From positions 10,825-74,824 of the forward strand of contig CAYVOF010000002.1 of assembly GCA_964453405.1 (NCBI GenBank): a stretch of 64,000 bases of DNA, given 5' to 3'. Below are positions 44,571 through 63,566 of the stretch, one piece after another. The notes under the pieces are model-generated. The model worked only from the letters and a program-made list of their open reading frames with translations. It was not told the DNA's origin and did not search any database. The position numbers and the translations under genes are program-made. Position 1 is the stretch's first letter, and every line of letters starts with the position of its first letter. Source of the DNA: an uncultured Candidatus Saccharibacteria bacterium. Its GTDB lineage: Bacteria; Patescibacteriota; Doudnabacteria; UBA920.

Positions 44571-44674
44571 AAAATAGATTGACAATATGCTGTTTTTGGC
44601 TTATTTATAAAAGATTTTAGCCACTATTCAGCAATTAAAAGCACTAGCTTTATTGCTAGTAGAACTTAATCAAA

Positions 44675-44704
44675 ATTTTATCCCATATTTAGCAGAGTGT
44701 CAAG
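44675..44704 (-). promoter_or_regulatory. Putative promoter (TTGACA-18-TAAAAT) with a ~100-nt leader for the S10 operon
   Basis: Hexamers read on the minus strand; a long leader is expected for an S10 operon under autoregulation. Confidence 0.4.
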
Positions 44705-44739
44705 TTTTTATTGGGGAAAATATGAGATATTGATGGATA

Positions 44740-44768
44740 TTGACAAAATCTTAGATTTATGGTAAAAT
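44740..44768 (+). promoter_or_regulatory. Sigma70-type promoter TTGACA-17-TAAAAT (with TGG extension) for the methyltransferase gene
   Basis: Consensus hexamers 35 nt upstream of the ATG at 44803; SD GGAGG. Confidence 0.5.
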
Positions 44769-44802
44769 AAGTTGGTTTTTATGTCTAAGTTATGGAGGAA
44801 TT

Positions 44803-45666
44803 ATGAAACCAACTATTTACCAGGTAGGCGCTCCAACCAGTGAAGTTAGGCGTCTTGAGAATTTGGAGTGGCCAAATGAAGTTAGCAAAAGTATCCTCGA
44901 AGCACTTCATGCTGGAATCCCAATCACTTCCCTACTCGATGCAGGAGCCGGCCCAGGAACACAAATGGCGGAACTGTGTTATAAACTCGATATTGAGTAC
45001 AGAGCATTTGACAATGGCAAAATGTCGACCCCAGTCGGCGACGTTTATATGGCTGACATTCTTAAAAGGAATCTGTGGGATAAAGGCCTTCTAGGCTCTT
45101 CGGTTGTTGCCGACGTATTGACCGTTGGACTAGACTCATTTGGTGACCGTAATTACGATCTGCGCGATAACAGTCTTCCTGATATTGTCCACATGCGGTT
45201 CGTACTTATGCACTTGCCAGCTTGTGAATGGGCTATGGCAATTATGAATATGCTCATGCTAGCACAGAAACGATTAATTTTGATGGAATACGATTGGCGA
45301 ACTGTTAAAAGTTCATCGCACCCCACATTAATCGAAGAAAGTGTAAAAACTTTTGAACGATTTGCCAAGTTGGTAAATCTCAACCTCTACGCCGGCCGGA
45401 ATCTAACAAACGAGGCAAATGGATTTGGTTACCCTGTAACTGAATGCGTATATTCCAGAGCTGAAGGTCATTATGCGCAAGAGCTGGCCTCTAAACTCCC
45501 GACAGGAATCGAGACGGCGAGGAAAATTGGCGAGATCGATCTGGCAAATGAGCTGCAAAATATAATGGATACTATCCTAGGATATGGAAATGGGTTAACA
45601 CTCGTTCCAGCAGAAATTCACGCCGTTGTGATCGATACATCAAAGGAACGCATTCGACGCGTTTAA
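44803..45666 (+). CDS. Class I SAM-dependent methyltransferase
   Basis: Motif I LDAGAGPGTQ. GC content is somewhat higher than in neighbouring genes. Confidence 0.65.
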   Translation: MKPTIYQVGAPTSEVRRLENLEWPNEVSKSILEALHAGIPITSLLDAGAGPGTQMAELCYKLDIEYRAFDNGKMSTPVGDVYMADILKRNLWDKGLLGSSVVADVLTVGLDSFGDRNYDLRDNSLPDIVHMRFVLMHLPACEWAMAIMNMLMLAQKRLILMEYDWRTVKSSSHPTLIEESVKTFERFAKLVNLNLYAGRNLTNEANGFGYPVTECVYSRAEGHYAQELASKLPTGIETARKIGEIDLANELQNIMDTILGYGNGLTLVPAEIHAVVIDTSKERIRRV

Positions 45667-45686
45667 ATTATGGTGAATATTCACCA

Positions 45687-45717
45687 CTCCGGAACTAAAC
45701 GTTCCGGAGTTTTTTAT
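45687..45717 (+). terminator. Rho-independent terminator
   Basis: ctccggaac taaac gttccggag followed by T6. It is preceded by a perfect 14-bp palindrome GGTGAATATTCACC at 45672-45685. Confidence 0.7.
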
Positions 45718-45721
45718 TTTC

Positions 45722-45750
45722 CAAAAAAAAGAAGCAATTACTTGCTTCTT
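45722..45750 (-). terminator. Rho-independent terminator for the minus-strand 156-aa gene
   Basis: gaagcaa ttac ttgcttc followed by a T-run on the minus strand. Confidence 0.6.
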
Positions 45751-45755
45751 AGATG

Positions 45756-46226
45756 CTAGCTATGATTAACCATAGCTTTTAGAACTTCGACTGAATTAAC
45801 TTGTGTAGGAATAGCAATCTCTACACGCTTATCACTATCTCCCCCACCATCCAAAACTGGATCAATCGGTGGTTCACTTATAACTAAACAATACTGCAAG
45901 TCGTGTGGATTTCCATTAATCTCTTCAGCATCGAGATGAATTTCAAAGCCCAGCGCCTCTTCTAAAGATTCAAGATATGTTTGCAAGACTTTAAAATCTG
46001 CTGCGGATAACTTTTCTAAAATAATTTCCAGATTGCGATTAGTGATGGTTATGCGGTCAACACCAAAACGAAACAATCGTAGCAAATTATTATCGGACAG
46101 TTCTTCTAGCTGTTGTAATATTTGAATGACGATTAACGTAATCGGAATGGAGCTACGTAGCATCCGCTGTATTGTATCGACACTCTTCCACTGAACTCTT
46201 CTCATATAATGTTCAATTTCCTCCAT
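45756..46226 (-). CDS. Hypothetical protein (156 aa)
   Basis: ORF bounded by terminators; no recognisable motif. Confidence 0.45.
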   Translation of the reverse strand: MEEIEHYMRRVQWKSVDTIQRMLRSSIPITLIVIQILQQLEELSDNNLLRLFRFGVDRITITNRNLEIILEKLSAADFKVLQTYLESLEEALGFEIHLDAEEINGNPHDLQYCLVISEPPIDPVLDGGGDSDKRVEIAIPTQVNSVEVLKAMVNHS

Positions 46227-46312
46227 TTTAAACTTAGACCCATTTTATCTAATCAAGTATTCTTCGTCAAAGAAAAAAGCGCTACCTCGATAGCACTTTT
46301 TTTAAAATAATT

Positions 46313-46672
46313 TTATAAACTACACTCTTGGTATAAAGTTCGAGTGTCCGGATTCGTCATAGTTTGACCTGTGACCTTTGCGTTATAAACGGAACATGTA
46401 TCTGTTGCAGGGATCCAGAACGTAGTTACTATGACATCTGAAGACACTGCTGATGCAGAACCAGAAGTAGTTGGCTTAATTGACCAGCTTCCACCAGTTT
46501 GAGATTTAATTGCCCAACTCCTACCAATATTAAAGTTTGCTGATGAAGGTGTGCCTTGAATATCTGCAAACGGACCGACATGGTAATAACGTGATGTCCA
46601 AAAAAAACCGACCAATGCACCAATGACTAGCATCAGTACTATTAGCATCATATTTTGTTGATTTTTTATCAT
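46313..46672 (-). CDS. Small signal-anchored, Cys-containing protein, paralog 2 (119 aa)
   Basis: Shares N-terminal TM plus the R.Y..GP.A..QGTPSSAN module with the adjacent gene; its own terminator lies downstream. Confidence 0.55.
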   Translation of the reverse strand: MIKNQQNMMLIVLMLVIGALVGFFWTSRYYHVGPFADIQGTPSSANFNIGRSWAIKSQTGGSWSIKPTTSGSASAVSSDVIVTTFWIPATDTCSVYNAKVTGQTMTNPDTRTLYQECSL

Positions 46673-46744
46673 TATAATTTAACAGTTAATTAATACCTTA
46701 AGTATGAGGCTTTTAAAAAAATCTGCCAAACGAGTTATCCCCAA

Positions 46745-46790
46745 ACAAAAAACTCCCCCCATATAAGAAGGGAGTTTTTTTATATTTTTA
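46745..46790 (-). terminator. Rho-independent terminator after paralog 1
   Basis: aaactccc ... gggagttttttt hairpin with T-runs on both strands. Confidence 0.6.
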
Positions 46791-47087
46791 ATTACCAGTT
46801 CCACCTGGGGTACTTGACCAATTCTCAGTCCAGTAATCACGACCATTGACCCGGCGGTGACATCTCATGTCTTCGCCCAGAGTCCCTGCGGCGCCACTAC
46901 TATCAAAATAACATAGATCTCCTGGTCGATGACCAGCCGACCCTTGTAAATTAGCAGAAGACGGTGTCCCCTGCAAACCAGCTAATGGTCCTGCTCCATA
47001 ATTACGAGCAGTAAAAGCCCAACCAATGAAGATGCCGATTGCGATCATTCCAACACCAATCAGGAGATCTTTTTGTTTCTTTTCCAT
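46788..47087 (-). CDS. Small signal-anchored, Cys-containing protein, paralog 1 (99 aa)
   Basis: N-terminal 47 aa paralogous to the 46313-46672 gene; two cysteines in a divergent C-terminal part. Confidence 0.55.
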   Translation of the reverse strand: MEKKQKDLLIGVGMIAIGIFIGWAFTARNYGAGPLAGLQGTPSSANLQGSAGHRPGDLCYFDSSGAAGTLGEDMRCHRRVNGRDYWTENWSSTPGGTGN

Positions 47088-47159
47088 TTTATTTTAAACA
47101 ATTAATTATTACTTTAAGTATGAGTTTATTTATAAAATAGTGCAAACAAGTTATCCACA

Positions 47160-47196
47160 AACAAAAACTCCCCCACCTCGGAGGAGTTTTTAAATT
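47160..47196 (-). terminator. Rho-independent terminator downstream of tuf
   Basis: aaaaactcctccgaggtgggggagttttt hairpin followed by a T-run on the minus strand. Confidence 0.6.
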
Positions 47197-48384
47197 TTAC
47201 TTAGTAATCTTTACAACAACACCAGCACCAACGGTTCGGCCACCTTCACGGATCGCGAACTTACCTTTTTCTTCCAAAGCAATTGGAGTAATAAGCTTAA
47301 TGTTGATGTTTACAGTATCACCAGGCATAACCATTTCTTGGCCTTCTGGCAAGATAACTTCACCGGTTACGTCAGTTGTACGTACGTAGAACTGTGGCTT
47401 ATAACCCTTGAAGAAAGGAGTGTGGCGTCCGCCTTCTTCTTTGTTCAAGATATAAACTTCAGCTTCGAACTCAGTGTGAGGAGTAATAGAACCAGTCTTA
47501 GCCAAAACTTGGCCGCGTTCTACTTCTTCCTTCTTAACACCGCGAAGTAATAGACCAGCGTTGTCACCAGCCATACCCTTGTCCAACTGCTTGTTGAACA
47601 TTTCGATACCAGTTACAACAGTCTTAGAAGTTGGTTTGATACCAACGATTTCGACTTCTTCGTTGATGTTGATCATACCGCGTTCGATACGACCAGTAAC
47701 TACAGTACCACGACCTTCGATTGTGAAGATGTCTTCGATAGGCATCAAGAAAGGTTGGTCAGTAGCACGAGATGGATCAGGGATGAAAGTATCCAAAGCT
47801 TCTACAAGCTTTAAGATAGATGGTTCACCCATATCAGATGTGTCGCCTTCCAAAGCTTTTAATGCACTACCACGGATGATAGGTGTGTCTTTGCCTGGGA
47901 ATTCGTACTTGTTAAGCAAGTCGCGGATTTCTTCTTCTACTAAATCCAAAAGTTCTGGATCAGAAACCATGTCGCACTTGTTCATGTAAACTACGATGTG
48001 AGGTACACCTACCTGACGAGCGAGCAAGATGTGTTCGCGAGTCTGAGGCATAGGACCATCAGTAGCAGATACTACAAGAATAGCACCGTCCATTTGAGCA
48101 GCACCGGTAATCATGTTCTTGATGTAGTCGGCGTGACCAGGACAGTCTACGTGAGCGTAGTGACGAGTTGCAGATTCATATTCTGCGTGAGAGGTATTAA
48201 TTGTAATACCACGAGCTTTTTCTTCTGGAGCGTTGTCGATGCTAGCGTAATCGCGAGCTTTAGCGCCACCAGTTTTAGCTAACACAGTTGTGATAGCTGC
48301 AGTCAAAGTGGTCTTACCATGGTCTACGTGACCGATAGTACCAACGTTGACGTGAGTCTTAGAACGATCAAATTGCTCTGCCAT
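47197..48384 (-). CDS. tuf: Elongation factor Tu
   Basis: [14 protein letters not shown] and NKCD G-motifs; 395 aa. Confidence 0.97.
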
Positions 48385-48647
48385 TTGATACCTTTCTGTT
48401 CTATAAATTCGGTTCTAGCCCCGAGATACCCTCTCTACTTCCCCTTATCATCCTGATCGGGACTGGCTAGCTAAAGCGGGCTAAAGCTGGCGATTCGGGA
48501 AAGAAGGGAGGGTTTCTCTTTTTTTCGCAAGGAATCCAGGTGACGAGAAAAGAGATTTATAGTTTTTTAATGATTTTAAAATTGGCGACGGAGACGCGCG
48601 CCAATCACAATGTATTGTAAGTGGTTTTGGGTGAGTTTGTCAAGGGT

Positions 48648-48676
48648 TTGACAGCAATAGAAAAGTTGCTTACAAT
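48648..48676 (+). promoter_or_regulatory. Sigma70-type promoter TTGACA-17-TACAAT for the lipoprotein gene
   Basis: Consensus hexamers; an adjacent TTGTCA ... TTGACA inverted repeat overlaps the -35. Confidence 0.5.
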
Positions 48677-48699
48677 ATTGAGTCAATACAGGAGGACAT

Positions 48700-49149
48700 A
48701 TGAATATAACATTTAGACCAGTTTACAAAATTATTGTGCTGATGATCTTGATGCTTTTTGTCGGTTCGGCCACTGGTTGCAAATCGGATGCCAAAATTGC
48801 TGAAGCTAAGGTGGAAAAGGAAATAGAAAGGGAACAAAAGTTAACCCAGCTTAAAACGTACTCAGACGAAACTTGGACAGTAAAGCAAATTAATTTGCAA
48901 AACGATTCTTCTATAACAAATGATAATACATACGCTGTGATTATCGAAAACCCGAAGGGCGAGCGTAGGTATCTCAAGGCTGTAGAATCAAACCGTAGAG
49001 ACTATGGCAAATTACAAAGTTGGATGCTGGCCCACGATGACCAATTAAAATTTGCCATTAATGAATCAGTTTCTGTATTTAATTCTGAAGGTGACTTGCC
49101 CTATCTAATACTCGTGGAGAGAAATGGTAAAGTTATGACTCCTCATTAA
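48700..49149 (+). CDS. Putative lipoprotein (149 aa)
   Basis: Signal peptide with lipobox ATGC; SD AGGAGG. Confidence 0.55.
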   Translation: MNITFRPVYKIIVLMILMLFVGSATGCKSDAKIAEAKVEKEIEREQKLTQLKTYSDETWTVKQINLQNDSSITNDNTYAVIIENPKGERRYLKAVESNRRDYGKLQSWMLAHDDQLKFAINESVSVFNSEGDLPYLILVERNGKVMTPH

Positions 49150-49166
49150 CGAGGAGTTTTTTATTG
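49137..49166 (+). terminator. Rho-independent terminator
   Basis: actcctc attaac gaggagt followed by T6. Confidence 0.6.
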
Positions 49167-49239
49167 ACTAACTTCTTTAAAATCTATACAATTCAAAACC
49201 TAAGATAAACTCTTAGATAAAAATATAAGGAGGTGTAAT

Positions 49240-49479
49240 ATGAATTACCCAATATTCAAACAGCGATGGGTTAAAACCTTGCCTGATGGCAAAGTTGCAG
49301 AAGTGTACTCTATACACCTCACCCCAGAATCAGCAATTGAATTTATCGAACAGCAAAGACTCCAGCCAACATACCCAGAATATATAGCTACTGGTCATCC
49401 CGTGCCAGATATGGTCAACGAAGAAATTTTTAATTACTTAACTACGGCCAAAAATTGGTGGACAGAAGAAGAACATTAA
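49240..49479 (+). CDS. Hypothetical small protein (79 aa)
   Basis: SD AAGGAGG 7 nt upstream; bidirectional terminator hairpin at 49496-49525. Confidence 0.5.
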   Translation: MNYPIFKQRWVKTLPDGKVAEVYSIHLTPESAIEFIEQQRLQPTYPEYIATGHPVPDMVNEEIFNYLTTAKNWWTEEEH

Positions 49480-49525
49480 GTAAATCAGAATTAACAAAAC
49501 GCACCCGTTTGGATGCGTTTTTATT

Positions 49526-50010
49526 TTATATGTCGTCAAAGTTGGGTTTGATTTCTTCGTCCGCTTCTGTTTCGACTAAAGGTTGAGCTAATGGCATACC
49601 AAAACTTGGATCCATTACTTCTTCTCGCAAGTCATATTGAGGTGGCTCTTGTCGGCCGTAGGGTTGGTTGATAAACAAATCTTTGGCGCGTTTAGAAAGA
49701 ATATTTTTTATCGGCGTCGGCATGATTACCGAATGAGGTGCTGTGTTAGGTACATCATCTGCAATAGTTTCTAGATTAATGTTTGTAGTGTCCACGATAT
49801 CGGTGAGCTGGGCTTCTAATATTTCACGGTTAATTTTTTCTGGGTCTGGACCAGTAGGAGTTGAACTTGCTACGCCAGTCAAAACCGTACCACCAGCCAT
49901 GCGCTGATATTCAGCAAAGGACAAAAATACACCCTTCACTTTCCCATCTTCGCCAACAATCATTACTTTTCCATCTTGCCCTGCAAATTGTATTAAATCT
50001 TTAAGGTTCA
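49526..50010 (-). CDS. Hypothetical protein with a Phd/YefM-antitoxin-like N-terminal ~50 aa and an acidic Pro-rich tail
   Basis: An N-terminal pattern (KVMIVGEDGKVKGVFLSFAEYQRM) resembles Phd/YefM. The ATG at 50010 lies 7 nt after a TTGCCA-17-TATAGT promoter, so the mRNA is likely leaderless; the track TTG start is at 50047. Confidence 0.4.
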
Positions 50011-50137
50011 TATTTAATACTATAGTCGGCTCAGTCAATATTGGCAAATAAATATGGGTTAAGCTTGGGATACTTACAAATCGCTTTACAAATCCAAATA
50101 GATTATCTACAAAGTAAAGTCTAAATAAGGAGGAAAA

Positions 50138-50347
50138 ATGGCAAAATATTTTGTTAGTGGTTTAATCACAACTGTTCGTTCTCAAGTTGGTGATGACAAT
50201 AAAAAACATTTTGATCGATTTATAGATTACCCGCTTATCGTTTCGGAAGCTGATTATGCTGACTTTAGAAACGAGCTTGCGGAAAAACTAAACGCACACC
50301 CAACAGATCTTGAAGTCACTAATCTGAATGTTCTTTTCAAAACCTGA
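50138..50347 (+). CDS. Hypothetical small protein (69 aa)
   Basis: SD AAGGAGG; followed by a bidirectional terminator at 50357-50392 shared with fusA. Confidence 0.5.
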   Translation: MAKYFVSGLITTVRSQVGDDNKKHFDRFIDYPLIVSEADYADFRNELAEKLNAHPTDLEVTNLNVLFKT

Positions 50348-50399
50348 CATTACAAAAACCGTCCCCATGTTAGAGACGGTTTTTTTATTTCTATTAAAT

Positions 50400-52529
50400 T
50401 TACTGCATACCCTTACGAACGTTCATGCCCGCACGGGATTCAATAATATTTGCGGCAACATTCTTTGGAACTTCTTCATAGTGATCAAATTCCATGATGC
50501 TGGATGCCTGACCTTGAGTCATAGAACGCAACTGTGTTGCATAACCAAACATTTCGGCTAGCGGTACAAATGCAGTTACAACCTTGCGACCAGTAATATC
50601 TTCCATATCCTGAATCTTAGCGCGCTTAGAGTTTAAGTCACCGATTACATCACCCATGTTAAGTTCTGGCGTAGTAACAACAACTTTCATGACTGGTTCT
50701 AAGATAATAGGATCACCTTTCTTAACAGCTTCTTGTAAACATTTTGAAGCAGCAATTTTGAAGGCCATTTCGGAAGAGTCAACTTCGTGATAGCTACCGT
50801 CGTAAACAGCAGCACTAAAGTCTACTAATGGATAACCGGCAATAACACCGTTTGCGGCAGATTCCTGAATACCTTTATCAATTGGCTTGATGTATTCTTT
50901 TGGAATTACACCACCAACAATTTCGTCTTTAAATTCATAACCCTTACCTGCTTCGAGCGGTTCGACACGCAAGTAAACGTGACCATATTGACCGCGTCCA
51001 CCAGACTGACGAATATACTTAACTTCGGCAGTAGCCATTTTCTTAAAGCTTTCTTTGTAAGCAACTTCTGGTTTACCGACGTTAGCCTCGACTTTGAATT
51101 CGCGCTTCATACGGTCTACCAAAATTTCTAAGTGCAATTCACCCATACCAGCAATAATTGTTTGCTGAGTTTCGTCGTTAGTAGAAACTTTAAAGGTTGG
51201 ATCTTCTTCTGCAAGTTTTTGCATCGCAATACCCATTTTTTCTTGATCAGCTTTGGTCTTAGGTTCGATCGCCATGCTGATAACTGGTTCTGCGAATTTA
51301 ATCTTTTCTAATTCGATTGGAGAAGATTCAGCACAAAGAGTATCAGCAGTGATAGTGTCTTTTGGACCTACCAACGCGCAGATGTCTCCAGCAAATACTT
51401 CTTTAACTTCGTCACGTTGATCAGCGCGCATACGTACGATACGACCAACGCGTTCTTTGTTACCGCTACGAGCGTTAAGTACGTAAGAACCGGCTTCCAA
51501 TTTACCAGAGTAAACCCGGAAGAAAGCTAAACGTCCAACGAAAGGATCAGTTGCAATTTTAAATGCCAAAGCAGTAAATGGTTCGTCATCAGTTGGATGA
51601 CGAAGTAGTTCTTCACCAGTTTTTGGGTTATGACCTTTAACTGGTTCTTTGTCGGTTGGAGATGGCAAGAAGTTAGCAACACCGTCTAATAATGTACGCA
51701 CAATGATCCCGCGACCGTCACCACCGAATACTGGGAAGAATTCACCAGAGCGAGTAGCTTTGCGAATCGCTAGCAATAATTCTTCTTCGGTAAGTTCTTT
51801 ACCTTCTAAATATTTTTCCATTAACTGATCGTCGAATTCAACAACTTTTTCAATCAATTCGTGGCGGTACTTTTCACACTTTTCTTTTAAGTCCGCTGGT
51901 ACTTCACCGATGGTAAATTCTTTGTCAGTAAAATCTTTGTAGGTATAGGACTTCATTTGAACAAGGTCAACAACACCAACAATGTCTTTTTCAAATCCAA
52001 TTGGAATTTGAACAGGAAAAGCATTCTTAGTTAAACGGTTGTGAATTGATTCAAGCGATTTAAAGAAGTCACCACCGGTTTGGTTGATTTTGTTAATGAA
52101 GCACATGCGTGGTACGCCGTACTTGTCGGCTTGGCGCCACACAGTTTCGGACTGAGGTTCTACACCCATTTTTCCGTCGAACACGGTAACTGCGCCGTCG
52201 AGTACGCGCAAAGAGCGCTCTACTTCTACGGTAAAGTCTACGTGACCTGGAGTGTCGATAATGTTAATTTTGTATTCTGGAAGTTCGTCCGCTAACTTAA
52301 CGTACTGAGGCTTCCAATAACAAGTTACAGCCGCGGATGTAATTGTAATACCGCGTTCGCGTTCTTGTTCCATCCAGTCGGTCACAGTTTCACCTTCGTG
52401 AACCGCACCGATCTTGTGGATCATACCGGTGTTGTACAAGATACCTTCGGTAGTTGTAGTTTTACCAGCGTCGATGTGAGCGATAATCCCGATATTACGG
52501 GTCGCTTCTATTTGATAATCTCTGGGCAT
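50400..52529 (-). CDS. fusA: Elongation factor G
   Basis: AHIDAGKTT and DTPGHVDF G-motifs; 709 aa. Confidence 0.97.
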
Positions 52530-52574
52530 AATTTAATGGTTAATTTATAGTGTTTTTGGGTTTTTGTTCAATAC

Positions 52575-52603
52575 TTGACAATTTTATAATTATATGATAT
52601 AAT
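52575..52603 (+). promoter_or_regulatory. Perfect consensus sigma70 promoter TTGACA-17-TATAAT
   Basis: Seen directly in the sequence; it drives the small + strand gene lying antisense to the str operon. Confidence 0.6.
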
Positions 52604-52630
52604 GTAGTCAAACTGAGTTGGAGGAACTTT

Positions 52631-52828
52631 ATGAAAGCTAAAAATGTTGTTGGAATAATTCTGATCATTCTTGGAATAATTACCATTCTGTTCGGCCTTA
52701 TCGAAACAAACTGGTTGAGTATGTGGGAACTAGTTACACAAAGATTCGTTACCGGGTGGAAATTAATCCTTAGCATCATTATTGGTTGTATTCTTATACT
52801 GTCAGGTCGATATCTTCGACAGAGGTAA
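52631..52828 (+). CDS. Small hydrophobic two-TM protein (65 aa) encoded antisense between rpsG and fusA
   Basis: Consensus promoter, SD GGAGG 6 nt from the ATG, and terminator hairpin gatccgcc...ggcggat plus T-run at 52856-52890. Confidence 0.55.
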   Translation: MKAKNVVGIILIILGIITILFGLIETNWLSMWELVTQRFVTGWKLILSIIIGCILILSGRYLRQR

Positions 52829-52890
52829 AAGAATTACAACAGTTTGGGATCCGCCTAGTTTTACTGGCGGATTTTTTATTTCCCTGTTCC

Positions 52891-53403
52891 CTACTTACGC
52901 TTCGCACCGAATCTTGCAAAGTGAGCGAAAGCTTTGTTGGCTTCGGCCATACGGTGAGTGTCTTCACGCTTCTTTACTGCAGCACCGGTCTTGTTAAATG
53001 CATCAACAACTTCCTGTGCTAACTTAGTAGCCATAGGCGCACCTTTGCGGGCGCGTGCGGCTGCGATCATCCATTTCATTCCAAGTGCAGTGCGGCGAGG
53101 TTCTTGAACTTCCATTGGTACCTGATAGTTAGAACCACCAATACGGCGACCTTTAATTTCCATAATTGGGCAAACATTTTTTAAAGCGATGTCAAAAATT
53201 TGACGAGCGTCGGTAACTTCGGCATCTTTGTTTGCCTTCATCTTTTCTTCAACAATATCTAATGCAGAATAAAAGATTTTTTGCGAAACAGTTTTCTTAC
53301 CGCGTTCCATCAAATAGTTAATGAACTTAGCGTACTTTACACTGCTAAATTTTGGATCTGGTTCTGGAGTGTGTTTTTCGTAACTACGTGCTCTTCGTGG
53401 CAT
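52891..53403 (-). CDS. rpsG: 30S ribosomal protein S7
   Basis: MPRRARSYEK start and conserved S7 core. Confidence 0.92.
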   Translation of the reverse strand: MPRRARSYEKHTPEPDPKFSSVKYAKFINYLMERGKKTVSQKIFYSALDIVEEKMKANKDAEVTDARQIFDIALKNVCPIMEIKGRRIGGSNYQVPMEVQEPRRTALGMKWMIAAARARKGAPMATKLAQEVVDAFNKTGAAVKKREDTHRMAEANKAFAHFARFGAKRK

Positions 53404-63480: not shown

Positions 63481-63566
63481 TGGTGCCGGTGGTGGGAGTC
63501 GAACCCACACGCCCTTGCGGACAGTGGATTTTGAGTCCACCGCGTATGCCATTCCGCCACACCGGC
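63481..63566 (-). tRNA. tRNA-Leu (anticodon CAA), type II with long variable arm, CCA encoded
   Basis: Manual cloverleaf: acceptor GCCGGTG/CACCGGC, 3-bp D-stem, anticodon loop CTCAAAA, variable arm of 15 nt, T-loop TTCGACT, and a CCA 3' end. Confidence 0.85.

Follow-up and report, generated by a model that had tools for sequence, protein, structure and literature searches.

A lineage-specific small gene and a candidate structured RNA leader upstream of tuf in an apparently split str operon of Patescibacteria

Background

The canonical str operon of bacteria has the gene order rpsL-rpsG-fusA-tufA, and the genes for the elongation factors EF-G (fusA) and EF-Tu (tuf) are normally joined. The Patescibacteria, or candidate phyla radiation (CPR), account for much of the diversity of bacteria. 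Their genomes are tiny, and the majority of their lineage-specific genes await characterisation.

To describe the fusA-tuf junction in this group we analyzed a stretch of 64,000 nucleotides from an uncultured member of the Doudnabacteria (assembly GCA_964453405.1, contig CAYVOF010000002.1), here referred to as the window, together with the corresponding loci of relatives. In the window the two genes are separated by a gap of 2015 bp (48385-50399) containing four open reading frames (ORFs), here named A, B, C and D. The original prediction, made from the letters of the window, had described about 2 kb with four small genes at this junction, and all four ORFs were recovered in the same mixed orientation. 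The explanation that we consider best, at a probability of roughly 0.7, combines a split str operon, a gene C fixed upstream of tuf, a structured leader of tuf and small residents of flexible islets. The coordinates of all features are listed in Table 1.

Gene C and the apparently split str operon

The loci of relatives were gathered in four ways: as members of the EF-G cluster, as homologues of C, by searching the species representatives of GTDB with the alignment of C (31 loci) and by a metagenome scan with the RNA pattern described below. The homologues of C originated from metagenome-assembled genomes labelled by their submitters as Candidatus Saccharibacteria, Ca. Doudnabacteria or Patescibacteria group.

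Gene C was located upstream of tuf and on the same strand in all of 42 related loci (among them 36 from protein-based searches with tblastn placement, and six remote members), and it lay between fusA and tuf wherever the contig spanned both. Across the 36 loci the identity to the window proteins decreased from 95% to 81% for EF-G and from 69% to 29% for C, and the spacing ranged from 53 nt to 5 kb between fusA and C and from about 0.35 to 2 kb between C and tuf. Three remote loci (P0193, P0198 and P0165, the last on a marine Global Ocean Sampling contig) formed compact fusA-C-tuf units with EF-G 64-71% and EF-Tu 71-75% identical to the window. In P0115 the gene was situated directly upstream of tuf as well. 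The most distant putative member, P0200, is borderline (E 7.5e-4); here tuf followed directly downstream, and a sigma-70-like gene took the place of fusA upstream. Since P0200 keeps tuf even though fusA is replaced, the order C-then-tuf is the invariant relationship. The sigma-70-like gene preceding C in this locus (L041, 231-2267) had a weak Pfam match to Sigma70_r2. Of the metagenome loci found by the RNA pattern, 19 were long enough to tell, and C was upstream of tuf in 18 of these.

A word-indexed search yielded 81 homologous clusters of C. With a hidden Markov model (HMM) of the family, 111 representatives (50% identity clusters) were retrieved among 1.84 billion proteins, all of them from Patescibacteria. 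The window protein had no match in Pfam (at E<=1) or NCBIfam, no paralogue was present in the 64 kb, and a scan of viral contigs returned no relatives. A PDB sequence search with the family profile and two tail peptides found nothing meaningful. Literature searches produced no description of the C family or of a tuf leader like the one reported here. The C family belongs to no described family, and comparison of the loci shows C as an apparently vertically inherited, ancestral, lineage-specific and single-copy gene.

In the assembled loci of all relatives fusA and tuf were likewise not contiguous, with apparent gaps of 0.7-7 kb. From the sequence of the window gap, terminator-like hairpins were predicted behind both fusA and C, as was a consensus promoter for tuf. 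A box of the form TTGAC-N16-19-TAnAAT was found 170-455 nt upstream of tuf in 29 of 29 loci tested. By these predicted signals tuf has its own consensus sigma-70 promoter and, in the clade of the window, a leader of about 230 nt. The str operon of this Patescibacteria lineage is, by the same kind of evidence, permanently split into rpsL-rpsG, fusA, C and tuf as separate predicted transcription units.

The terminator shared by B and C overlapped a weak Rfam match (49494-49539, minus strand) to SpF10, a small RNA of Streptococcus, with 28.9 bits where the gathering score is 60 (E 0.02). Most likely this is a similarity in terminator shape only.

Expression signals and anatomy of the C protein

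The longest mechanical ORF of C comprises 173 aa from a TTG, and the ATG was taken as the start because the alignment of homologues fixes it. All 22 near-clade loci had a TAnnnT box ending 6-8 nt before this ATG and lacked a Shine-Dalgarno (SD) sequence. A TTGCCA-like -35 box often accompanied the TAnnnT box, and three loci had an extended TGn -10 box of C right after the fusA terminator. As all 22 near relatives share the box spacing and the lack of an SD, a leaderless C mRNA transcribed from its own promoter is apparently a conserved feature of the near clade. The 161-aa protein of the window had already been called apparently leaderless, and this now extends to its relatives.

The alignment of 28 members and more distant sequences revealed invariant motifs joined by linkers which varied in length and sequence. 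The N-terminal module of about 40 residues has the pattern MNLKDLLQLAGxQGKVVVVGEDGxVKGVFLSxxEYQKL. It is followed by an invariant helix (E/D)x(I/V)NREILxAQL (residues 57-72), in some subfamilies by a helix ERIDSLLSKRAxxLF (RAxxLF, 101-113), and near the C-terminus by the peptide DLR(A/E/S)EV(I/M)DP(S/T)F(D/G)F, which reads DLREEVMDPSF in the window protein. The subfamily of the window carries an extra terminal DEEIKPNFDDI that looks like a degenerate repeat of the motif [DE]E[IV]x(x)P[SN]F.

In the AlphaFold2 model the mean predicted local distance difference test score (pLDDT) was 64, and order was confined to residues 3-38, 57-72 and 101-113. The N-terminal domain was modelled as alpha-beta-beta-alpha (helices 3-13 and 32-38, strands 15-19 and 25-30; pLDDT about 61-77), with no first strand as in the beta-alpha-beta-beta-alpha fold by which Phd/YefM proteins dimerise and bind DNA. 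The protein is acidic, with a pI of 4.35 and a net charge of -13 in the window (N-domain pI 6.0) and a pI of 4.1-4.6 across the family.

The N-terminus of C had been described as Phd/YefM-like. C could accordingly be a type II antitoxin of the Phd/YefM family with a toxin that is encoded elsewhere or was lost; the N-domain would bind DNA and the tail would neutralise a toxin such as a Doc-like kinase acting on EF-Tu. Below-threshold matches to PF02604 were obtained for 11 of the 28 homologues (best E 0.0028) and one homologue from the Joint Genome Institute (JGI) is named PHD/YefM antitoxin, whereas C of the window had no Pfam match and a significant PF02604 profile match was not reached. Alignment with hhalign set the N-domain in register with the beta2-beta3-alpha2 region of YefM, but the probability for the C family against E. 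coli YefM was 1.6% at E 0.03, and the family HMM recovered its 111 proteins and not the huge Phd/YefM superfamily. Antitoxins typically have an acidic pI, a leaderless mRNA and a structured N-domain that precedes a disordered C-terminal tail; the N-domain of C, however, is not basic. The gene downstream of C was convergent (B) or variable in all loci, so that no toxin forms an operon with C. Mobile toxin-antitoxin modules, furthermore, behave differently from this family, whose gene is inherited vertically, as a single copy and at a fixed position. There was no PADLOC match, and A, B and D matched no toxin or defence family. We infer that C is not a canonical antitoxin and regard this identity as improbable; the Phd/YefM-like N-terminus is just a weak lead. 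The way C works may still be fairly described by an antitoxin-like architecture, in which a folded N-module is joined to a disordered tail that binds a partner.

In such an architecture the N-terminal module would probably oligomerise, and the invariant tail peptides (NREILxAQL; DLRxEVIDPSF / EEIKPNFDDI) would dock on a conserved partner. Because tuf is the only invariant neighbour of C, EF-Tu is the leading candidate for this partner, or, as a process, translation elongation or its regulation. We propose this tentatively, at clearly less than even odds.

A candidate structured RNA in the tuf leader

The region 48385-48647 upstream of tuf had been characterised as a GC-enriched leader of about 260 nt holding neither an ORF nor a tRNA. 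All three properties were confirmed: the GC content was 0.44 compared with 0.35-0.38 in the flanking small genes, the tuf strand contained no ORF, and ARAGORN detected no tRNA or tmRNA. The region is not empty, though, as a conserved covarying RNA structure lies inside it. In a scan of 46000-53000 against Rfam 15 (4227 families) the leader had no match at the gathering threshold or at E<=10, and no known Rfam RNA explains the gap. Identities as SRP, 6S or tRNA-like RNA were rejected, with no signal from Rfam or ARAGORN.

An alignment of the 330 nt upstream of tuf displayed conserved blocks amid otherwise unalignable sequence. The motif consists of CUGGAU, a small variable hairpin, AAAAAAAG and a long hairpin. 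The small hairpin was built from UUCC/GGAA with GNRA loops in some loci and from ACGCC/GGCGU in others, and contained large insertions elsewhere. The outer helix GAGA..CCCUC / GAGGG..UCUC was conserved in sequence. The inner stem had an entirely different sequence between clades with the pairing kept (CUCUUUUUCC/GGGGAAGGAG versus GGCACUGAUGC/GCAUUAGUG). The apex was AUCGAU in most relatives, and the other palindromic apexes were UGCGCA and AUGCAU. In the window about 42 nt are inserted at the apex (48440-48495, minus strand) in place of the AUCGAU loop; L020 and L024 carried other apex insertions.

The RNAalifold consensus folded the long hairpin with eight compensatory pairs. A covariance model (CM), here named R1, was built from 18 sequences and gave exactly one strong match of 55-97 bits per locus, just upstream of tuf and on the tuf strand, including 15 genome loci outside the training set. 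No second copy was found in the 64-kb window. In total, 49 matches of 55-97 bits were located directly upstream of tuf and on its strand, or at a contig end at that place. The metagenome scan with a degenerate pattern returned 27 matches, 22 of which were confirmed by the CM (60-97 bits); all 22, none of which had served to build the model, were directly upstream of tuf or cut by the end of the contig. The remaining five had no CM support and no tuf and were treated as chance matches.

The fraction of paired cells and the covariation score amounted to 88.9% and 0.343 in an alignment made with MAFFT only (slid controls at most 0.176), 89.7% and 0.324 in a CM-fitted alignment of 29 distinct sequences (at most 0.154) and 89.5% and 0.322 in a CM-fitted alignment of 47 distinct sequences (at most 0.159), values to be read with the relatedness of the sequences and the fitting of two of the three alignments to the model in mind. 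The slid controls ranged from 0.08 to 0.18 overall, and 0 of 500 shuffles reached the score of the motif. Within the main helix 8 of 19 pairs showed two-sided changes and about 92-93% of the cells were paired (92% in the 47-sequence alignment).

Conservation of the leader might also result from signals at the DNA level, such as operators of dimeric regulators or promoter elements, or from a hidden small ORF. The palindromic apexes would suit a DNA inverted repeat, while the replacement of the inner stem between clades with persistent pairing speaks against one. The outer helix and the CUGGAU block are invariant in sequence, so no covariation is present there. Antisense matches of the CM reached only about 20-40 bits, 35-60 bits lower than the sense matches, and G-U pairs were frequent; the structure therefore belongs to the sense RNA of tuf. 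Insertions of variable length, which were not multiples of three, occurred only at hairpin apexes, and this argues against an ORF. Taken together, we hold a DNA-level signal or a hidden ORF to be quite unlikely.

Hence the preferred reading is that of an RNA element: judged from conservation and covariation, the tuf leader holds a previously undescribed candidate RNA motif found only upstream of tuf. With moderate confidence we consider it a cis-acting, cis-regulatory leader rather than a purely structural or stabilising one. Such a leader RNA would bind a protein or a small ligand and so control the translation or stability of the tuf mRNA. No partner for a pseudoknot with CUGGAU was consistent across clades on inspection.

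The predicted tuf mRNA starts with a further hairpin. Members of the near clade have it too, with stems of another sequence in L005, L019 and L020; it would either stabilise the 5' end or act as an early element resembling a terminator.

Genes A, B and D and the flexible islets

To the near relatives, the flanking proteins of the window were highly similar (EF-G 91-95% and EF-Tu 90-98% amino acid identity). The content of the gap was less conserved. From 27 fusA-tuf gaps 111 ORFs of at least 50 aa were clustered. C was the only near-universal family; it was clustered in 25 of the 27 gaps and found by tblastn in L010 and L030, where ORF picking had missed it. Singletons accounted for 39 of the 111 ORFs, and a strongly hydrophobic segment was present in 32 of the 86 non-C ORFs. 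In L006, with an EF-Tu 98% identical to that of the window, the gap contained just C and an unrelated ORF of 225 aa.

The B family was found in 9 of the 27 gaps, always convergent with C and placed just behind it on the other strand, with the invariant residues W10, S24, H26, F35, G52 and W74. The D family occurred in four gaps immediately after fusA, again on the opposite strand; its homologues in L019, L020 and L021 shared 27-35% identity. The A family was present in two gaps. A synteny-guided local blastp identified one homologue of A in L005, also of 149 aa, with 25% identity over 126 residues (E 2e-6), located between C and tuf on the opposite strand. Word-indexed searches returned only the query itself for B and no relative other than the query for A, the latter among 5.8 billion clusters.

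Gene A had been called a lipoprotein gene with a consensus promoter. The promoter was confirmed. The protein reads LFVGSATG-C with the cysteine at residue 27 after the hydrophobic segment, and its homologue reads GGATGM; since the lipobox cysteine is not conserved in this sole homologue, the lipoprotein label is uncertain.

Two loci, L016 (3065-7965) and L018 (3750-7935), carried a co-oriented block of four to five genes and about 5 kb between fusA and C. The ORFs of the block measured 491, 274-279, 350 and 281-283 aa, plus 238 aa in L016. As these loci carry blocks of about 5 kb, the islet can take operon-sized cargo.

Could A, B and D be chance ORFs of an AT-rich spacer that are not expressed as proteins? 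They are short, without domain matches and without homologues in the word index, and singletons are common in the gaps of relatives. Each of the three nevertheless has a strong, well-spaced SD and is followed by a terminator, and the promoters of A and B match 10-11 of 12 consensus positions. In addition, certain residues stay invariant within the B and D families despite identities of only 21-38%, with position and strand fixed, and A aligns over most of its length with the L005 protein. Chance ORFs are thus improbable. With promoters, SDs or terminators and homologues at the same relative positions in other genomes, the earlier judgement that all four ORFs look genuine has been borne out.

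A different picture emerged for the original view that the four genes were inserted between fusA and tuf. If the gap were a recent horizontally acquired insertion unique to this genome, for example a remnant of a mobile element or phage, the four genes would be its cargo. The mixed orientation, a GC content of 0.35-0.38 below that of the flanking genes and the lack of database homologues of A and B in the word-indexed searches would fit. Comparative synteny of the junction, however, revealed that C is present there in every relative, and divergent homologues of B, D and A (25-38% identity) occupy the same relative positions. Because these homologues are divergent yet same-positioned, old residence with turnover has to be assumed and not recent arrival. 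No PHROG match and no relatives of C in viral contigs were obtained, and neither an integrase nor repeats nor a tRNA flanked the window gap (ORF list, ARAGORN). A recent insertion is highly improbable as an explanation of the gap and, for C, B and D, already largely refuted.

The comparison of the loci shows C as ancestral and A, B and D as putative old, patchily retained residents instead of one recent insertion. The spaces flanking C, as well as those between rpsG and fusA and between tuf and rpsJ, appear as flexible islets of mostly small, fast-evolving ORFs, many of them on the opposite strand.

Weight and significance of the combined reading

Several points weigh against the combination of split operon, fixed C, structured leader and islets. 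A Foldseek search of the C model against the PDB gave nothing below E 0.3, and the fold of the N-domain could not be assigned; the best local resemblance was half a CBS domain (probability 0.4-0.5, E>0.9). The fixed position of C may reflect no more than vertical inheritance in small, stable genomes, as a frozen accident. The remote compact loci have C and lack the RNA motif; for this reason C and the motif are not obligatorily coupled. On inspection, no SD-sequestering or terminator platform downstream of the motif was consistent across clades. Finally, every locus was retrieved through C or the RNA motif, so that the sample is made up of loci that have one or the other.

Both elements fall into familiar categories, C being a lineage-specific conserved hypothetical protein and the RNA a structured leader of a translation gene. 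A more far-reaching view would make C a Patescibacteria-specific partner or regulator of EF-Tu that docks on EF-Tu or the ribosome, and the tuf leader a new riboregulator. This appears unlikely to us. If it were true, the tail peptides of C would be functionally analogous to the tails of stalk proteins or of the SSB type, and the leader would set EF-Tu levels by autogenous binding of EF-Tu or another protein, or as a nucleotide-sensing riboswitch. C and the leader would then act together as a control module of this lineage, governing the most abundant of the translation factors in organisms whose regulatory repertoire is minimal.

As it keeps its place by tuf across deep divergence and amid turnover, C can be put to the test as a possible translation-associated factor of this lineage. 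With the leader motif comes a new candidate class of structured RNA with good covariation. Moreover, even the str operon can apparently break into promoter-driven units which host flexible gene islets.

Other features of the window

The tuf-rpsJ junction (44586-47196, 2.6 kb) contained four lineage-specific ORFs. The ORFs of 99 and 119 aa are tandem paralogues with 47% identity over the N-terminal 47 aa and a transmembrane segment, and their 81-nt upstream regions are repeated as well (78% identity).

The gap between rpsG and fusA (52530-52890, 360 bp) carried an opposite-strand ORF of 65 aa with two transmembrane segments (52631-52828). Its promoter (52575-52603) was a perfect 12/12 match with a TG extension. 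A small opposite-strand ORF was found at this junction in relatives too, with 102 aa in L001 and 143 aa in L004. Neither A-D nor five neighbouring small ORFs had a significant match in Pfam, NCBIfam, PHROGs or PADLOC. A tRNA-Leu (CAA) at 63481-63566 on the minus strand was the only RNA gene detected in the window and the sole Rfam match at the gathering threshold (63484-63566).

Table 1 Features of the window around the fusA-tuf gap
Feature	Position	Strand	Description	Basis
rpsL	53877-53452	-		ORF list
rpsG	53403-52891	-		ORF list
fusA	50400..52529	-	EF-G, 709 aa; upstream border of the gap	ORF; Pfam EF-G domains in homologues
Terminator of fusA (-) and D (+)	50357..50390		likely bidirectional; hairpin with T-runs on both strands, AAAAACCGTCCCCATGTTAGAGACGGTTTTTTT	read by eye; absent from terminator scanner list
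Gene D	50138..50347	+	69 aa, acidic (pI 5.1), no known domain	
SD of D	50127-50133	+	AAGGAGG	
Promoter of C	50019..50047	-	TTGCCA-17-TATAGT; -10 box ends 7 nt before ATG; no SD	promoter scan
Gene C	49526..50011	-	161 aa, ATG start (MNLK), "tuf-upstream acidic protein"	
Terminator of B and C	49496..49521		common bidirectional intrinsic terminator, 11-bp stem	terminator scan
Gene B	49240..49479	+	79 aa, acidic (pI 4.8), no known domain	
SD of B	49227-49233	+	AAGGAGG	
Promoter of B	49164-49192	+	TTGACT-17-TACAAT	
Terminator of A	49137-49158	+		
Gene A	48700..49149	+	149 aa, N-terminal hydrophobic segment, lipobox-like SATGC	
SD of A	48690-48695	+	AGGAGG	
Promoter of A	48648-48676	+	TTGACA-17-TACAAT (11/12)	
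Promoter of tuf	48614..48643	-	TTGACA-18-TACAAT; back to back with the A promoter	promoter scan
5'-end hairpin of predicted tuf mRNA	48571..48607	-	UGAUUGGCG...CGCCAAUUUUAAAAUCA, followed by a U-run	upstream alignment
Candidate structured RNA motif of tuf leader	48417..48542	-	about 85 positions	CM R1, 75 bits, E 4e-18
tuf	47197..48384	-	EF-Tu, 395 aa; downstream border of the gap; SD GAAAGG about 8 nt before ATG	
99-aa ORF	47087-46788	-		
119-aa ORF	46672-46313	-		
156-aa ORF	46226-45756	-	homologue in L006 between tuf and rpsJ	
287-aa ORF	44803-45666	+	weakly methyltransferase-like; homologue in L007 between tuf and rpsJ	Pfam Methyltransf_23, E 0.0026
rpsJ	44585-44247	-	S10 operon, after tuf	ORF list

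Comparison with known systems

With antitoxins of the Phd/YefM family (PF02604), C shares a small predicted N-terminal alpha/beta module, a disordered acidic tail and an apparently leaderless mRNA, and the stretch GKVVVVGEDGxVKGVFLSxxEYQKL is the part aligned in register with YefM at the low hhalign probability given above. It differs in the invariant NREILxAQL and DLRxEVIDPSF, which are unknown in Phd/YefM, and in being a single-copy gene of fixed synteny upstream of tuf, without an adjacent toxin or a significant profile match.

Acidic docking tails are known from SSB (...DDDIPF), from FtsZ (D-I-P-x-F) and from the P-proteins of the archaeal and eukaryotic stalk, whose tails recruit translational GTPases. 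As a lead only, C resembles these in being disordered and acidic and in ending with the acidic-hydrophobic EEIKPNFDDI-COOH. The spacing of its motifs is unlike all three, and there was no PDB sequence match.

To our knowledge no leader family has been described for tuf. The leaders of ribosomal proteins (L10, S15 and L20 in Rfam) differ from the tuf motif, which matches none of the Rfam 15 families and has no recognisable expression platform. In common with them, the motif is a predicted covarying sense-strand structure in the 5' untranslated region of one translation gene with a dedicated promoter.

The gap resembles a genomic islet or integration hot spot in that conserved flanks enclose a content which varies between close relatives. 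Here, in contrast, the islets lie inside one of the most conserved operons of bacteria and are free of integrase and repeats.

Compared with the canonical str operon, the window keeps the order and orientation of the genes followed by the S10 operon (rpsJ), whereas every junction is opened: 360 bp between rpsG and fusA, 2015 bp between fusA and tuf and 2.6 kb between tuf and rpsJ. Here fusA, C and tuf are each predicted to have their own promoter and terminator, and C is an extra conserved gene and, in this lineage, a fixed member of the locus.

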